The notes under the pieces: model-generated
Seen by the model: only the letters and a program-made list of their open reading frames with translations
Told to the model about the DNA's origin: nothing
Database searches by the model: none
Program-made: the position numbers and the translations under genes
Shown here: positions 4,298 to 44,051 of the stretch, piece by piece
Layout: every line of letters starts with the position of its first letter
Position numbering within the stretch: the first letter of the stretch is position 1
Source: Betaproteobacteria bacterium
GTDB lineage: Bacteria > Pseudomonadota > Gammaproteobacteria > Burkholderiales > SG8-41
Direction of reading: 5' to 3'
NCBI GenBank assembly: GCA_032123035.1
Contig: JAQBFV010000189.1
Location: 243 to 64,242 of the forward strand
DNA length: 64,000 bases

Positions 4298-5638
4298 ATG
4301 GATATTCCCCGCGCCGGCACCGCACCCCGCGTGCAGCCTCCGATGCAGAAAATCGGCAAGTACGAGGTCATTAAGGAGCTCGGCAAGGGCGCCACAAGTG
4401 TGGTGTACCAGGCCTACGACCCGTTCCAGAACCGTCAGGTCGCGATCAAGCTCGTATTTCCTGAAGCCCTCGTCGACCGGGATCATGGGAAACGCTATCG
4501 CAAATTGTTTGTGACGGAGGCGTCGCTCGCGGGCAAGCTCTCGCATCCTCACATCGCGGCGATCTTCGACGCTGTCGCCGGGGACGATGCCAGCTACATC
4601 GTCATGGAGTACGTGGATGGCACGACGCTAGAAAAGTACGCGCGACACGACCACTTGCTCCCGATTCACAAGATTCTGGATATTGCCTACAAGTGCGCGC
4701 GCGCCCTCGATTACGCGAGCCGGCAGGGCGTCATCCACCGCGACATCAAGCCCGCCAACATCCTGCTGGCCGATCAAGCCGATATCAAGATCTCGGATTT
4801 CGGTGCGGCACTGACGCTCGCGTCGCAAACGACGCAGGTATCCGGCGTGGGCTCGCCGGCCTACATGTCGCCGGAGCAGGTCAAGGAGCAGCCGCTCACG
4901 CACCAAACGGACATATTCTCATTGGGTGTCGTCCTGTATCAGCTGCTGACGGGGCGCTTGCCGTTCCAGGGCACCAACAACTACAGCATGATCTACCAAA
5001 TTATCAACACCGATCCGCTTCCGCCGAGCCGGCAGCGTCCGGGTATTCCCGGCAATGTCGACGCGATCGTCATGCGCGCGTTGCAGAAGAACACGGCCAA
5101 CCGCTACCAGAGCTGGGAAGATTTTGCGGCGGACCTGGTGTTAGCAATGGGGGGGCAGGAAAAGGAAGATAAGGATTTTGCCGAGGCCGAGAAGTTCGAC
5201 ATGCTGCGCAAACTCGACTTCTTCCGGCGTTTCAGCGACATCGAACTATGGGAAGTGCTGAGGCTCTCGCGCTGGCACAAGCATCAGCGCGATACAGCGC
5301 TTATCGAGGAAGGCGATATCGGCTCGTCGTTTTTCATTCTCGTCGCTGGCGAGGTGAAGGTCGTCAAACAGGACCGCCTGCTCAACGTGCTGAAGGCCGG
5401 CGAGTGCTTCGGCGAGATGGCCTACCTCGGCAAGCAGAAATTCCAGCGCTCGGCGAACGTGGTGGCGCTCTCCGCGATCACTGTCATCGAGATCCGCGCT
5501 GAATCCTTGAGCAAGGCCTCCGAGCTTTGCCGCCACCATTTCCATGGCGCATTCCTCGAGCTGCTCGTGGATCGGCTGGCGATGGCGAATGTGCGATTAT
5601 CGCAGCTACTCGCCGACCGCAACATCAGCATCTTCTAA
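4298..5638 (+). CDS. Hanks-type Ser/Thr protein kinase fused to a C-terminal cyclic-nucleotide-binding domain
   Basis: Kinase motifs GKGATSVVY, AIK, HRDIKPANILL, DFG and SPEQ. The C-terminal 130 aa carry FFRRFSD...GDIGSSFFILVAGEVKV...GECFGEMAYL (cNMP-binding fold). An alternative start is at 4343. Confidence 0.85.
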   Translation: MDIPRAGTAPRVQPPMQKIGKYEVIKELGKGATSVVYQAYDPFQNRQVAIKLVFPEALVDRDHGKRYRKLFVTEASLAGKLSHPHIAAIFDAVAGDDASYIVMEYVDGTTLEKYARHDHLLPIHKILDIAYKCARALDYASRQGVIHRDIKPANILLADQADIKISDFGAALTLASQTTQVSGVGSPAYMSPEQVKEQPLTHQTDIFSLGVVLYQLLTGRLPFQGTNNYSMIYQIINTDPLPPSRQRPGIPGNVDAIVMRALQKNTANRYQSWEDFAADLVLAMGGQEKEDKDFAEAEKFDMLRKLDFFRRFSDIELWEVLRLSRWHKHQRDTALIEEGDIGSSFFILVAGEVKVVKQDRLLNVLKAGECFGEMAYLGKQKFQRSANVVALSAITVIEIRAESLSKASELCRHHFHGAFLELLVDRLAMANVRLSQLLADRNISIF

Positions 5639-11937: not shown

Positions 11938-12055
11938 AATGCGCAATGCTGAATGATAAATGGATCCGTACCTGCCGCGCCCGGTGTGCGGGCGTTGACC
12001 GCTTTTCGCTAAGCACTAAACATTGAACATTAAACATTGAACATTAAACATTGGT
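11938..12055. repeat. inverted heptad arrays AATGNNN x4 (11938-11965) and CATTRAA-type x6 (12014-12055)
   Basis: The AATG/CATT tetranucleotide recurs at an exact 7-nt period. The holC TAA stop (12044) lies inside the right array. The left array ends 11 nt before ATG 11927. Confidence 0.8.
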
Positions 12056-12472: not shown

Positions 12473-12537
12473 TTATCGTGAATCGTAATTCGTTAAGTGC
12501 CGCTGCGGGACCAGGATTCACCATTCACGATTTACGA
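12469..12537. repeat. inverted heptad arrays TCRTNNN x4 (12469-12496) and TTYACSA x3 (12517-12537)
   Basis: TCGT/ACGA recur at a 7-nt period. The pepA TGA (12525) is inside the right array and the holC ATG (12472) is inside the left array. Confidence 0.75.
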
Positions 12538-14105: not shown

Positions 14106-15182
14106 ATGATCTTCCGCAACGCGCTTCTCCGCGAGCTGGTGATTTCCTCGCTGGGAGTTTTCTTCGTCCTGGTTGGCATCATAGTGACAACGGCGCTTGT
14201 GCGGTTTCTCGGACTGGCTGCGGCCGGTGCCATCACTGCCGGTGGCGTGGCGGCGTTGCTCGGTTTGGCGCTGGTGGGCTATCTGCCGCTCGTGCTTTCG
14301 CTCACGCTCTTCGTCGCGGTGCTGATGACACTCTCGCGCGTCTACCACGATTCGGAGATGGTCGTCTGGTTTGCAAGCGGCATGAGCCTGACCGAATGGA
14401 TCCGGCCCGTGCTCATGTTCACGGTACCAGTCGTCGTCCTGATTGCGCTGGCTTCTCTGCTACTGAGGCCGTGGGCGGTCGCCAACAGCGAGGAGCTGCG
14501 CCGGCGCATGGACAGCCGGGATGATGTATCGGTGATAACGCCCGGCGTCTTCCGGGAATCCAATCGGGCCGACCGCGTGTTTTTCGTTGAGGCGGTGTCG
14601 GGCGCCGAGAAACTCGTCGGCAACGTGTTCGTGAGCTCGGTCCAGCATAATCGGCAGGGCGTGATGGTGGCCGCGCAGGGGTATGCGGAGACCGCGCCGA
14701 ATGGCGATCGCTTCCTCGTGCTGAAGAACGGCCGGCGCTACGAGGGCGTGCCCGGCAAGGCCGTGTACAAGATCTACGAGTTCGAGCGTTATGCCATGCG
14801 CATCGCGTTGAGTGAGGCGCGCCGCGCACCCACCGAAAAGAGCGTGCCAACGGTAGAGCTGGTGCGTAATTTGACTCGCCGCAATCAGGGCGAGTTGTCA
14901 TTCCGGCTGGGCATTCCCATTGGAGCGCTGGTCCTGGCGTTGCTCGCAATCCCCCTGTCCTTCGTCAATCCGCGCGCCGGGCGGTCGATGAATCTGCTTC
15001 TCGCGCTGCTGGTGTACATGAGCTACAGCAACATGCTGTCGATCGCGCAAGCATCCATCGCGCAGTCACGCATCAGTTTTGCGGCCGGGGTGCTCGGCGT
15101 GCACGCTCTGATGTTCCTGCTGCTCCTGCTGCTGTTCTACCGCCGTCTGATGCTGTTCTCGATTTTTCGCTTGATACGATGA
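14106..15182 (+). CDS. lptF: LPS export ABC transporter permease LptF
   Basis: MIFRNALLRELV N-terminus, six-TM permease architecture, divergent from pepA, and a 4-nt overlap with lptG. Confidence 0.88.
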   Translation: MIFRNALLRELVISSLGVFFVLVGIIVTTALVRFLGLAAAGAITAGGVAALLGLALVGYLPLVLSLTLFVAVLMTLSRVYHDSEMVVWFASGMSLTEWIRPVLMFTVPVVVLIALASLLLRPWAVANSEELRRRMDSRDDVSVITPGVFRESNRADRVFFVEAVSGAEKLVGNVFVSSVQHNRQGVMVAAQGYAETAPNGDRFLVLKNGRRYEGVPGKAVYKIYEFERYAMRIALSEARRAPTEKSVPTVELVRNLTRRNQGELSFRLGIPIGALVLALLAIPLSFVNPRAGRSMNLLLALLVYMSYSNMLSIAQASIAQSRISFAAGVLGVHALMFLLLLLLFYRRLMLFSIFRLIR

Positions 15183-16252
15183 GGACGCTGCGGCGATACA
15201 TTGCGACCGAAATCTTCGTCGCGACCGCTCTGTTCACGGCCGCGCTGGTGATGCTGTTCGCGTTCTTCGACATGGTGGAGGAGGTAAAGGACCTCGGCCG
15301 CGGCACCTACACGATGCGACTGATCGCGGGTTACGTCTTGCTTTCGGCGCCGGGGCACATCTACGAACTCTTTCCGATCGCGGTCCTGATCGGCGCGCTT
15401 TTCGCGCTCGCGCAACTCGTTGCGGGATCCGAGTATACGGTCATGCGCACCGCCGGCGTATCAACCGCGCGTTTCGTTACCACGCTCGTGGGAATCGGCC
15501 TCGTTCTTGCCATGCTCACGTTCGCTTTCGGGGAATTCGTCGGCCCGCCCGCGGAGCAGTTCGCGCAGCGCCTTCGCTCGCAGGCCATTACCGGCGTGGT
15601 GGCGCAGGAGTTTCGCTCGGGCCTGTGGATCAAAGACGGCCGTAGTTTCATCAACGTGGTCGAAGTGCTTCCCGACACCAGTCTGCGTGGCGTGCGGATC
15701 TACGATTTCGACGAGCAATATCGGCTGCGCTCCATCAGTTTCGCACAACGGGGAACTTATCAAAGCGGCCGGCGCTGGATGCTCCACGACGTTGCGCGCA
15801 CGAACTTCGATGGCAAGGAAACCTCGGTGCAGAAACTGGCGCAGGCGAGCTGGCAGTCGGTTCTCGATCCCGATCTCATCAGCGTGCTCCTGGTGAAGCC
15901 TGAAAAGATGTCGGCTTCGAGCCTCTATTCGTACACGCAGCACCTCAAGGAAAACCGGCAGCGGGCGCTGCGTTATGAAATCGCGCTTTGGAACAAGCTG
16001 ACCTATCCCCTGGCCGTTGTGGTGATGGTCGTGCTCGCGCTGCCTTTTGCGTATTTTCGTGGCCGCCAGGCGGGCGTCGGCGCCAAAATCTTCGCCGGCA
16101 TCATGCTCGGCCTGGTGTTCCACTTCCTGAATCGCCTGTTCTCGTACCTTGGTCTGATCAACGATTGGCCAGCCTTTGCCAGCGCCATCGTGCCCATCGT
16201 GATTTTTTTCTCGGCGGCGGTGGGGATGATCTGGTGGCAGGAGCGAAGATAA
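15179..16252 (+). CDS. lptG: LPS export ABC transporter permease LptG
   Basis: MRTLRRYIATEIF N-terminus and a YjgP/YjgQ-type permease fold. It is translationally coupled to lptF. Confidence 0.88.
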   Translation: MRTLRRYIATEIFVATALFTAALVMLFAFFDMVEEVKDLGRGTYTMRLIAGYVLLSAPGHIYELFPIAVLIGALFALAQLVAGSEYTVMRTAGVSTARFVTTLVGIGLVLAMLTFAFGEFVGPPAEQFAQRLRSQAITGVVAQEFRSGLWIKDGRSFINVVEVLPDTSLRGVRIYDFDEQYRLRSISFAQRGTYQSGRRWMLHDVARTNFDGKETSVQKLAQASWQSVLDPDLISVLLVKPEKMSASSLYSYTQHLKENRQRALRYEIALWNKLTYPLAVVVMVVLALPFAYFRGRQAGVGAKIFAGIMLGLVFHFLNRLFSYLGLINDWPAFASAIVPIVIFFSAAVGMIWWQERR

Positions 16253-16352
16253 GGCGGAAGGCGGAAGGCGGAAGGCGAGGGGGACCCTACTTAAGAGGTT
16301 TTTCCTTCATCCTTCATCCTTCATCCTTCATCCTTCATCCTTCATCCTTGAT
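16251..16352. repeat. inverted heptad arrays AAGGCGG x4 (16251-16278) and CCTTCAT x6 plus CCTTGAT (16304-16352)
   Basis: Perfect tandem 7-mers. The lptG TAA abuts the first array. The TGA of the RDD gene (16335), and its last codons KDEG, are encoded by the second array. Confidence 0.9.
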
Positions 16353-16769
16353 GACTCGGGTGCCGGCGATCCGGTCGTGCAGGAACTGGTGATCCCGGTC
16401 CACGAGGGCCCATGCGAAGCCCGCGCCGAATGCGAGTAATCCAGCAAGAGCGAGGCAATAGCGCTGTACTGCCTGTCGCAGTGTAAGCATGCCGCCGTTG
16501 CGGTCCACCAGCCGAAGGCGCCAGGTTTTCATCGGCAGCGTCTGACCGCCGCGGCGCCATTGGCAGACGAAATACGCGCCCGCGAGGGCCACGAGATAGA
16601 GCTGGAGGAGCGGCCGCGCGACGACGTGTTCCACCGCTTGAGTCAAGGCGACGAATGGCGCTGCACCGAGCGCGAGGACTGCACACAGAACCAACGCTTC
16701 GTAGGCGAGGCTTACCAGGCGCCGCATGAGGCCTGCTGGCGGCGCGCTGTCATCATGCGCGGCAGACAT
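16335..16769 (-). CDS. RDD-family membrane protein
   Basis: Three TM segments and a C-terminal ...LVDRDHQFLHDRIAGTRVI tail typical of RDD proteins. It is the last gene of the ECF/DUF3619/DUF3106 block. Confidence 0.7.
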   Translation of the reverse strand: MSAAHDDSAPPAGLMRRLVSLAYEALVLCAVLALGAAPFVALTQAVEHVVARPLLQLYLVALAGAYFVCQWRRGGQTLPMKTWRLRLVDRNGGMLTLRQAVQRYCLALAGLLAFGAGFAWALVDRDHQFLHDRIAGTRVIKDEG

Positions 16770-21945: not shown

Positions 21946-22680
21946 GTGGGGAAAGGACGGGAAGATACGGTGAATATCGAGCAACAACGAGCTGACATAG
22001 CCACGCCGGAGGCCGCTGGCCAGAAGCCGCACCGCGCGAACGGCTACCCTCATCCCATCATTGCGCGTGAGGGCTGGCCCTTCATTGCGCTTTCCGTCAT
22101 CGTGGCCGTGCTGGTCCACGCGGCTGCGGGCCTGTGGTGGGCAGCGCCGCTGTGGCTCGTGGTCGTTTTGGTCCTTCAGTTCTTTCGCGACCCTCCACGC
22201 GCTGTTCCGCTCGAACCGAAGGCGGTCCTGTCACCGGCGGACGGGCGCATCGTCACGGTCGAACGCGCTCGCGACCCGTATCTCGAGCGCGACGCCCTGA
22301 AGATGAGCGTCTTCATGAACGTGTTCAACGCGCACTCCAACCGCAGCCCGGTGGACGGCGAGGTTCGCGAGGCGTGGTACCACACGGGTAAGTTCTTCAA
22401 CGCCGCGTTGTCCAAATCGTCGTTCGAGAACGAGCGTGCCGCGCTCTGGATCCGCACGCCGGGCGGTGCGGACGTGACGTGCGTGCAGATCGCGGGGCTG
22501 ATCGCGCGGCGCATCCTCTGCTATGCCCGGCCCGGCCAGCGCCTTGCGCGCGGCGAGCGCTACGGGTTCATCCGCTTCGGTTCCCGGGTCGATGTCTACC
22601 TGCCGTCGGGCGCGCGTCCGGTCGCGGCCGTTGGCGACAAGGTCTATGCCACCGAAAGCATTCTTGCGATATTTCCGTGA
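21946..22680 (+). CDS. psd: phosphatidylserine decarboxylase (short form)
   Basis: [13 protein letters not shown], and [14 protein letters not shown] containing the self-cleaving GS site. The start is GTG at 21946, or GTG at 21970. Confidence 0.85.
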
Positions 22681-22762
22681 ACGGTGAACAGTGAACGGTG
22701 AACAGAAACCGGGACGCCCACTGCCGATGACCCACCGTTTACCGTTTACCGGTTACCGTTGA
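22677..22762. repeat. inverted heptad arrays GTGAACR x4 (22677-22704) and CCGTTTA/CCGGTTA/CCGTTGA x4 (22735-22762)
   Basis: In the + RNA, 23 of 27 positions pair, including three G-U pairs. The psd TGA is in the first unit. The pssA GTG (22769) follows the last unit by 6 nt. Confidence 0.85.
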
Positions 22763-22768
22763 CCGCCC

Positions 22769-43853: not shown

Positions 43854-44051
43854 GGTGAATGGTGAATGGTGAATGGTGAATGGTGAATGGTGAATGGTGA
43901 ATGGTGAATGGAGAATGGTGAATGGTGAATGGAGAATGGTGAATGGTGAATGGTGAATGGTGCGTCGAAACAGCAGGGCTGCTTGAGAATGTCTTCGCGA
44001 GTTATGGGGTGCGAACCACCACTCACCACTCACGAATCACGACTCACGGCT
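43854..44051. repeat. largest heptad locus: 15 tandem units GGTGAAT (two are GGAGAAT) at 43854-43958 plus a degenerate 16th, a spacer of about 50 nt, then 5 inverted units CACCACT CACCACT CACGAAT CACGACT CACGGCT at 44017-44051
   Basis: Counted unit by unit. The pilS-like TGA lies 7 nt before the first unit, and the pilR-like ATG lies 8 nt after the last. Confidence 0.95.

Follow-up and report, generated by a model that had tools for sequence, protein, structure and literature searches.

Tandem heptanucleotide repeats have been described in several bacterial lineages, the closest known systems to the one considered here being the GGGAATC repeats of Xanthomonas and the GGGGA(C/T)T repeats of Nostoc (Rehm et al., 2015; PMC4692102). 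These heptamers are arranged in tandem, 89-93% of them are intergenic, and they lie near the end of the upstream open reading frame (ORF) and are scarce between divergent genes (PMC4692102). In Xanthomonas, 70-75 pairs of arrays have been found in convergent orientation, with the G-rich strand first, and are capable of forming stem-loops (PMC4692102). In both groups, related species differ widely in the length and sequence of the repeats present at a given locus, and no function has been found (PMC4692102). Here, we describe two heptanucleotide arrays located between the convergent genes lptG and an RDD-family membrane protein gene, in a 64,000-nucleotide stretch of contig JAQBFV010000189.1 from an uncultured betaproteobacterium close to SG8_41 (hereafter, the window). 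These two arrays probably represent a single copy among a population of intergenic heptanucleotide microsatellites that extends through the genome and the clade. The lptG/RDD element is ordinary within its genome and belongs to a known but functionally unexplained kind of repeat, in a host lineage which is unusually rich in repeats.

Other described systems share part of this profile. Among the long simple-sequence repeats of prokaryotes with units of 5-11 nt, heptanucleotides are dominant and intergenic (Mrazek et al., 2007, as cited in PMC4679880 and PMC4692102), and long heptanucleotide repeats are reported in these citing papers to be patchily distributed (Burkholderia, Xanthomonas, cyanobacteria) and are ascribed there to polymerase slippage (PMC4679880; PMC4692102). 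As represented in these sources, long simple-sequence repeats in general and the cyanobacterial heptamers (the short tandemly repeated repetitive, or STRR, sequences of Calothrix and Nostoc) have the same dominant-heptad, intergenic and slippage profile as the arrays studied here. The account of Mrazek et al. (2007), as relayed by the citing papers, covers abundance; inverted pairing, polarity, overlap with ORF ends and an SG8_41-like lineage lie outside it. Similarly, the TAACTGA repeats of Beggiatoaceae (MacGregor, 2015; PMC4679880) and the GGACCGG/MTYCTGA elements of Geobacter metallireducens (PMC2700814) are dispersed intergenic heptamers of a single lineage. However, the former constitute a single-unit family located mostly directly upstream of starts (PMC4679880), the latter are single-unit elements with a fixed number of four to five copies (PMC2700814), and neither forms inverted pairs at gene ends.

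The genome assembly containing the window comprises 3.64 Mb in 371 contigs (62% G+C). Among the 4,477 rows returned by Tandem Repeats Finder (TRF), 1,394 have a period of 7, well above any other period, and 1,082 period-7 arrays, distributed in 145 unit classes, contain at least three copies. The commonest unit accounts for 12% of these arrays, AAGGCGG makes 44 of them and AAGGATG (a rotation of ATGAAGG) another 29. For genome-wide statistics, gene boundaries were obtained with a simple codon-usage ORF caller, which delineated 3,174 genes. With these boundaries, 816 of the 1,082 arrays (~75%) are fully intergenic and represent 5.1% of the intergenic DNA; arrays are present in 24.5% of the spacers between convergent genes, 18.9% of those between tandem genes and 11.2% of those between divergent genes, and for 113 genes the stop codon falls within an array. 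The arrays are almost restricted to non-coding DNA, where they abut or overlap stop codons. As in microsatellites, units stand head to tail beyond chance, and period 7 is dominant and mostly intergenic. At the locus itself, the perfect tandem copies of both arms are far above chance expectation. Repeat-hairpin endings being found at hundreds of junctions of this genome, there is no special mechanism to infer for lptG and the RDD gene.

Direct evidence for the way these arrays change came from seven contigs assembled from other public sequencing runs (Logan), which encode an identical LptG protein. The left arm is unchanged in the seven contigs. In contrast with the window, which carries six CCTTCAT units followed by one CCTTGAT (6+1), two of the contigs, L081 and L082, carry only two CCTTCAT units followed by CCTTGAT (2+1) between flanks that are 99.9-100% identical; for L082, 0 mismatches over 1,702 nt were counted on one side and 1 over 1,165 nt on the other. 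The two alleles differ by exactly four whole 7-nt units. Three further contigs (L083, L084 and L087) break inside the right array after more than 3.6 units, so that the right arm is polymorphic in copy number, with forms of 2+1, at least 4, and 6+1 units. The short allele is real, since a 31-mer spanning both flanks over only three units is impossible from the 6+1 allele. As the number of units differs between contigs whose flanks are 99.9-100% identical, the locus is a hypervariable microsatellite, with a copy number that varies between near-identical genomes, and its arrays are formed and resized through the gain and loss of whole 7-nt units. In the assembly, 58 contig ends fall inside arrays, for ~21 expected. 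The contigs L085 and L086, also obtained from other samples, stop precisely where the AAGGCGG array ends (window position 16277), although this array is shorter than the 31-nt word of the assembler; such breaks would fit a variant, in length or in sequence, of the left arm or of the centre in those samples.

The organization of the locus is summarized in the table below. The sequence and TRF agree with the preliminary description of this DNA on the start of the AAGGCGG array at the second base of the lptG TAA, i.e. 0 nt from the stop codon, and its statement that the C-terminus and the stop codon of the RDD protein are encoded by the repeat itself is equally correct.

Features of the lptG-RDD junction (window coordinates)
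Feature	Positions	Strand	Basis or content
lptG (lipopolysaccharide export permease)	15179..16252	+	ORF list; Pfam LptF_LptG 9.2e-77; 80 orthologous loci
lptG stop codon	16250..16252	+	TAA
Left (G-rich) arm, AAGGCGG x3.9	16251..16277	+	TRF, 100% matches
Non-repetitive centre (loop), 26 nt	16278..16303	.	AGGGGGACCCTACTTAAGAGGTTTTT; sequence
Right (C-rich) arm, CCTTCAT x6 + CCTTGAT	16304..16352	+	TRF
CCTTCAT x6	16304..16345	+
CCTTGAT	16346..16352	+
Right arm as called by TRF, TCCTTCA x6.7	16303..16349	+	TRF, 100% matches
Repeat units beyond the RDD stop	16304..16334	-	read directly from sequence
RDD-family membrane protein gene	16335..16769	-	ORF list; Pfam RDD 1.1e-19
RDD stop codon	16335..16337	-	TGA (reverse complement)
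Five final RDD codons (I-K-D-E-G)	16338..16352	-	entirely within the array
RDD K-D-E-G codons	16338..16349	-	repeat-encoded
RDD I codon	16350..16352	-	repeat-encoded

On the sense strand of the RDD gene, the right arm reads (ATGAAGG)n. The Pfam RDD domain ends at residue 136 of the 144 encoded by the ORF, and the arrays have displaced the non-conserved tail which follows ...LHDR[IL]AGTR[IV][IV], providing KDEG and the TGA codon. As previously noted, (ATGAAGG)3 contains TGA in all three frames, and the same source predicted that gain or loss of a unit would alter only a few C-terminal residues. The natural alleles bear this out more strongly than anticipated: the 2+1 and 6+1 alleles encode the same ...GTRVIKDEG* end, leaving the protein unchanged. 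Because the frame enters the array from the fixed CCTTGAT end, and TGA is present in every frame of (ATGAAGG)n, the RDD protein is not altered by the number of units; its frame always terminates in the second or third repeat unit. Past this stop, the frame reads AGG, then ATG AAG GAT GAA GGA TGA (MKDEG*), then AGG and a second mini-ORF entering the loop, each ATG of these distal units lying 7 nt after an AAGG. An exact look-up of the 144-residue RDD protein returned no record, and gene callers place its start so as to give 130 residues.

The junction was further compared across 80 related loci, in most of which lptG and the RDD gene are arranged convergently. The RDD homologues share the end ...QFLHDR[IL]AGT[RK][IV][IV], after which the tail varies: KDEG is found in the window and in L002, RDEG in L003, and NG, SV and others elsewhere. 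Some tails read through several heterogeneous units, such as KDEGGRMKAEG (L029, L030) and KEEGGRRKEDG (L007). In relatives devoid of arrays, the stop codons of lptG and of the RDD gene are only 3-30 nt apart, and the arrays therefore came as additions to a spacer that was ancestrally tiny. In array-bearing relatives, the units differ between genomes and the arms are mostly still complementary, as exemplified by TTCAAAG/CTTTGAA (L004), GGATGAG/CTCATCC (L006), TTTNAGG/CCTTAAA (L008) and GGTGAGG/CCTCACC (L017). Both convergent stop codons lie within a single array of TAGCGGT or TAGCTGT, with 3-18 copies, in Sulfuricella-like genomes. Arrays recur at the lptG-RDD junction in several lineages while their sequence turns over. 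In the comparison of unit number and RDD C-terminus suggested in the preliminary description, units and tails vary among relatives, and L081 and L082 keep KDEG*. Among 61 related genomes, (AAGGCGG)3 occurs in 26 and (ATGAAGG)3 in 25, all belonging to the family of the window except one, which belongs to another family.

Several of these related loci have peculiarities of their own. At L018:4072-4200 and in L023, L026, L027, L031 and L034, the whole spacer is one array (18 copies of TAGCTGT or 3-5 of TAGCGGT); in these Sulfuricella-like genomes, the TAG of lptG on one strand, and the TAA or TGA closing the RDD gene on the other, both come from repeat units. In L015:4072-4260, a long, nearly perfect palindrome (..GTAGGTTGGGTTAG...CTAACCCAACCTAC..) is inserted inside a heptad spacer, between inverted AGCGGTC-type units. 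In L002:4157-4250, from the SG8_41 genome, 13-14 copies of AAACTTG and three further short heptad runs are found in the same spacer, the stop-to-stop gap being 180 nt. In the closest relative, L001 (93% LptG identity), the RDD frame is interrupted by a premature stop (...ALVDRD*) before the conserved QFLHDRLAGTR, ~112 nt past the lptG stop; this homologue may be a pseudogene or reflect an assembly error.

Beyond their abundance, the arrays of this genome obey rules of arrangement. Among 277 pairs of adjacent arrays (120 nt apart or less), 147 are in inverted orientation with at least 5 of 7 positions complementary, compared to ~56 expected from random pairing, and direct-orientation similarity among adjacent pairs is not enriched. 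The commonest pair type is the one present at the lptG-RDD junction, in which AAGGCGG is associated with the complement of AAGGATG. This pair is found at 11 loci by TRF and 13 by pattern search, for 0.8 expected from partner shuffles and a maximum of 5 in 5,000 shuffles, while the homotypic pairs AAGGCGG/AAGGCGG and AAGGATG/AAGGATG occur 0 and 1 times, respectively. No conserved loop motif was found among the AAGGCGG/CCTTCAT pairs, the centres of which are unrelated in sequence; the only exception is the centre of the window, which partly resembles that of the pair on C217 (TACTTAA). Pairs with GTTCAAG/CTTGAAC arms have a conserved centre of ~35 nt (..GTTGGACG..TCGAATACGAAGTTCC..), which suggests that this subfamily is a truly dispersed element with heptad arms.

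Inverted pairs are also strongly polarized, with 113 G-first pairs versus 11 C-first. They are located in tandem (81) versus convergent (22) contexts, at a median distance of 7 nt from the end of the upstream ORF. Perfect 9-bp hairpins associated with the repeats are G-first in a ratio of 151:19, compared to 194:146 for ordinary intergenic hairpins. Single arrays follow the same polarity: their G-rich strand points outward from the neighbouring gene, whether they lie at its stop (75:9) or at its start (64:6), and in a strict test requiring the stop codon to lie wholly before the array, the ratio was 180:34. Polarity holds for units lacking stop codons (39:10), and units with as many G as C show no stop orientation (24:20); on these two grounds, a supply of backup stop codons was rejected as its main cause. 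Mimicry of Shine-Dalgarno sequences by G-rich units was likewise dropped, as it predicts purine-rich arrays before starts and the opposite was seen. Polarity, partial complementarity and the AAGGCGG/AAGGATG pairing are hence rules of the family and not features of this locus. The same pair type is found between the co-directional genes ahcY (AdoHcyase) and metF (MTHFR), 7 and 12 nt from their ORFs, and between other co-directional gene pairs. The ahcY-metF spacer (C42:6648-6741) is filled by this pair, with GGAGGAAGGAGG directly after the TAA of ahcY; the longest metF ORF begins with a GTG located 7 nt past the C-rich arm, and no Shine-Dalgarno sequence can be seen for it.

These rules bring the present repeats close to those of Xanthomonas and Nostoc. 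In both cases, pairs consist of two close arrays, of which the G-rich one comes first whichever strand is read, located near the end of the upstream ORF, and here also divergent spacers are the least occupied. However, the present genome contains ~300 arrays per Mb, compared to ~37 per Mb in Xanthomonas, with 145 unit classes instead of one consensus. Its arms are in most cases heterotypic (5-6 of 7 positions), and the arrays extend into stop codons and protein tails. Furthermore, AAGGCGG and ATGAAGG hold only GG runs and no G3-4 tracts, and the G-quadruplex property of the Xanthomonas and Nostoc repeats is therefore not applicable.

The lptG-RDD junction is a documented heptanucleotide microsatellite with natural length alleles in otherwise identical DNA, at which the repeat took over a dispensable protein tail and its stop codon, leaving the protein immune to slippage. 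It also illustrates the rules of the family, namely polarity, heterotypic arms and lineage-specific units. These rules cover ~5% of the intergenic DNA of the clade and hold in Xanthomonas and Nostoc as well, and explaining them would settle a question standing since the excess of bacterial heptamers was first noted.

Regarding the mechanism, the arrays would be generated by replication slippage with a strong preference for 7 nt, their growth being presumably bounded by purifying selection on the flanking ORFs. Once transcribed, the pair could fold into a long bulged hairpin in the 3' region shared by both convergent mRNAs. On either strand, the predicted fold consists of a stem of ~31 pairs around the 26-nt centre, in which 2x2 internal loops (C.U and G.A) alternate with 5-bp helices, with a minimum free energy of -45.4 kcal/mol for the plus strand and -43.3 kcal/mol for the minus strand (shuffle means, -40.5 and -37.0). 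This prediction agrees with the earlier observation that 5 of the 7 positions in each unit are complementary between the arms, and each convergent transcript indeed meets the G-rich arm first. A 5/7 match between arms is nevertheless reached by ~20% of random array pairs, and the inverted arrangement is significant only for the family as a whole, not for this locus. An arm-swap test on nine relatives gave an average of -34.6 kcal/mol for native halves versus -26.8 for chimeras; the test is confounded, as purine-rich arms of different genomes cross-pair and their lengths differ, and the native combination was best only for A/T-type units (L004, L008 and L017). In these modelled folds, the result is weak evidence for co-evolving arms.

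The best functional analogy for such a hairpin is provided by the repetitive extragenic palindromes (REP) and bacterial interspersed mosaic elements (BIME) of E. coli, together with the stem-loops at Rho-dependent ends, which act as stabilizers and weak terminators (10.64898/2026.03.23.713779; PMC6061677). In E. coli, Rho-ended transcripts finish at stable stem-loops without a U-tract, which block PNPase and RNase II (PMC6061677), and ~30% of convergent spacers hold REP sequences, acting as context-dependent stabilizers and partial terminators (bioRxiv 10.64898/2026.03.23.713779). Like REP and BIME, the present pairs are abundant, extragenic, imperfect hairpins without a U-tract, found at the 3' ends of genes, in operons and in convergent spacers (~25-30% of the latter), and their location varies between strains. 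REP sequences consist of a conserved palindrome of ~35 nt mobilized by REP-associated tyrosine transposases (RAYT); here, by contrast, microsatellite arms surround unrelated centres and vary in unit number, and no ~35-nt palindromic consensus is shared by the 13 pairs of this type. The hairpin may thus be at most REP-like, impeding 3'-5' exonucleases and perhaps serving as a weak roadblock that depends on context, and termination proper would be performed by Rho at a later point, within the antisense of the opposite gene. The locus itself lacks the compact stem and U-tract of intrinsic terminators, the shared palindrome of REP elements and the altered gene product of contingency loci.

Several observations weigh against a population of arrays shaped by slippage alone. 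Pure neutral slippage leaves unexplained the dominance of a few units (12% of arrays for the first), the heterotypic pairing of AAGGCGG with AAGGATG (11 loci versus 0 and 1 homotypic ones) and the 85-90% polarity rule, and these three properties point to selection or to a directed process. As for the hairpin, the fold is no better than those of dinucleotide shuffles (z of -1.4 for the plus and -1.6 for the minus strand), the copy numbers of paired arms are uncorrelated genome-wide (Spearman -0.04) and mismatches between the arms are not biased towards G.U on the transcribed strand (30:23, p 0.41); the REP-like 3' hairpin, as the upper limit of any role, is something we infer by analogy. A further caveat is the crude, home-made ORF caller which underlies the genome-wide gene-boundary statistics.

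The unexplained regularities have suggested another possibility, that the arrays form a selected system acting at the RNA level or through protein binding, with functional polarity and heterotypic pairing. They would then be, for instance, hairpins in intercistronic or 3' positions which hide the C-rich arm from Rho and escape RNase III through their 2x2 bulges, or the arrays would be read by a heptad-recognizing protein. This explanation is improbable, although it draws on a polarity far stronger than in ordinary hairpins, on non-random pairing, on units common to a genus-level clade, and on the same polarity being reported for the G-rich heptamers of Xanthomonas and Nostoc (PMC4692102). Against it stand the absence of G.U preference on the sense strand, the uncorrelated arm lengths, the free turnover of unit sequences between relatives at the same locus, the lack of a regulatory role for the Xanthomonas repeats in Rehm et al. 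(PMC4692102) and the fact that no candidate heptad-binding protein was identified. In its most developed form, this idea makes the arrays of the clade organized transcript-shaping elements, with polarity, obligate heterotypic pairing and genus-wide units as a design kept by selection or by a dedicated factor. The regular 2x2 bulges, avoiding both RNase III and the instability of perfect palindromes, would fit such a design, as would a G-first hairpin which never exposes its C-rich arm to Rho. The lptG/RDD copy would in that case be a bidirectional insulator of two convergent mRNAs, a proposal which we likewise regard as doubtful.

The preliminary description had instead considered the pair as a possible terminator of lptG and of the RDD gene, non-canonical in the absence of a U-tract. 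A bidirectional and possibly Rho-dependent terminator would be consistent with the location between convergent genes, the class of spacers most often occupied by arrays, with the hairpin predicted on both strands, with the REP sequences between convergent E. coli genes which overlap annotated bidirectional terminators (10.64898/2026.03.23.713779) and with the presence of Rho in the genome. The absence of a U-tract was correctly noted: the flanks are GATGACTCGG and TTATCTTCGC, a consensus terminator scan of positions 16250-16352 returned no intrinsic-terminator-like site, and the predicted fold is unlike the compact GC-rich stem, closed by a loop of 3-8 nt, of intrinsic terminators. In an Rfam scan of the spacer with E values up to 1, no family was found either. 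The idea of a termination device dedicated to this gene pair, however, is not supported, the element being one of ~1,000 arrays and ~150 inverted pairs of the genome which obey the same rules. In particular, the same pair type between the co-directional ahcY and metF argues against efficient termination, and it is not alone, other tandem genes being separated in the same way and inverted pairs being more numerous in tandem than in convergent contexts. In addition, relatives with spacers of 3-30 nt and no array support that no hairpin is needed at this junction. Rho loads on C-rich rut sites, and a G-rich arm transcribed first would never leave the C-rich arm single-stranded, the opposite of what Rho loading needs. 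Natural alleles spanning two to six units in one arm, arm lengths that are uncorrelated and mismatches without G.U preference on the transcribed strand also count against a terminator, which we consider unlikely.

A third alternative is a mobile or dispersed palindrome with heptad arms, similar to REP sequences or miniature inverted-repeat transposable elements (MITE), which would have been inserted rather than grown in place. Such an origin could account for the same arm pair at 11-13 loci, for the conserved ~35-nt core of the GTTCAAG/CTTGAAC subfamily, for longer composite repeats on several contigs and for the partial likeness between the loops of the window and of C217 (TACTTAA), and the genome contains two matches to Y1_Tnp (IS200/RAYT-type). 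The loops of AAGGCGG/CCTTCAT pairs are however otherwise unrelated, and neither fixed ends nor target duplications were seen. From one relative to the next, the junction keeps its arrays but not their units, the alleles are separated by whole units, as in-place slippage predicts, and single arrays obey the same rules as pairs, making insertion a rather remote prospect for this locus.

Finally, a contingency (phase-variation) locus varying the RDD C-terminus is very improbable and close to refuted: while a hypervariable repeat does overlap the 3' end of the ORF and the tails of L029, L030 and L007 run through several heterogeneous units, the tail is identical in the two alleles seen, the frame runs into the array from its constant CCTTGAT side and is closed in the second or third unit, the conserved end of the domain is followed by only 4 residues, and the 113 genes ending in arrays are of all kinds.

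The probable membership of the lptG-RDD arrays in a general microsatellite population comes with other repeats in the same DNA. Within the window, further heptad arrays or inverted pairs are located at 12019-12053, 12515-12537, 22677-22765 and 43854-44048, with units AACATTG (5 copies), GATTCAC (3.3 copies), GTGAACG/ACCGTTT, and GGTGAAT (15.6 copies) with CACGACT (4.6 copies), respectively. Elsewhere in the genome, a composite repeat of ~80 nt lies beside heptad arrays on C281 (~4330-4420), on C347 (two places) and on C230 (GGGCCTTACACCCCGTGAATGGTGAATGGATTAAACCGTGCGTCGTCAGTCGTCAC...AGCACTA), and the motif TGTGTTTATCTGCGGCTAAAT recurs on C156, C300, C52, C70 and C367. A second repeat family has a period of 13, with ~199 arrays of at least three copies and units around TGGTGATGA, such as GAAAAATGGTGAT; these arrays too form inverted pairs a few tens of nucleotides apart, for example at C3:1330-1452, C3:6672-6792 and C5:2919-3047.

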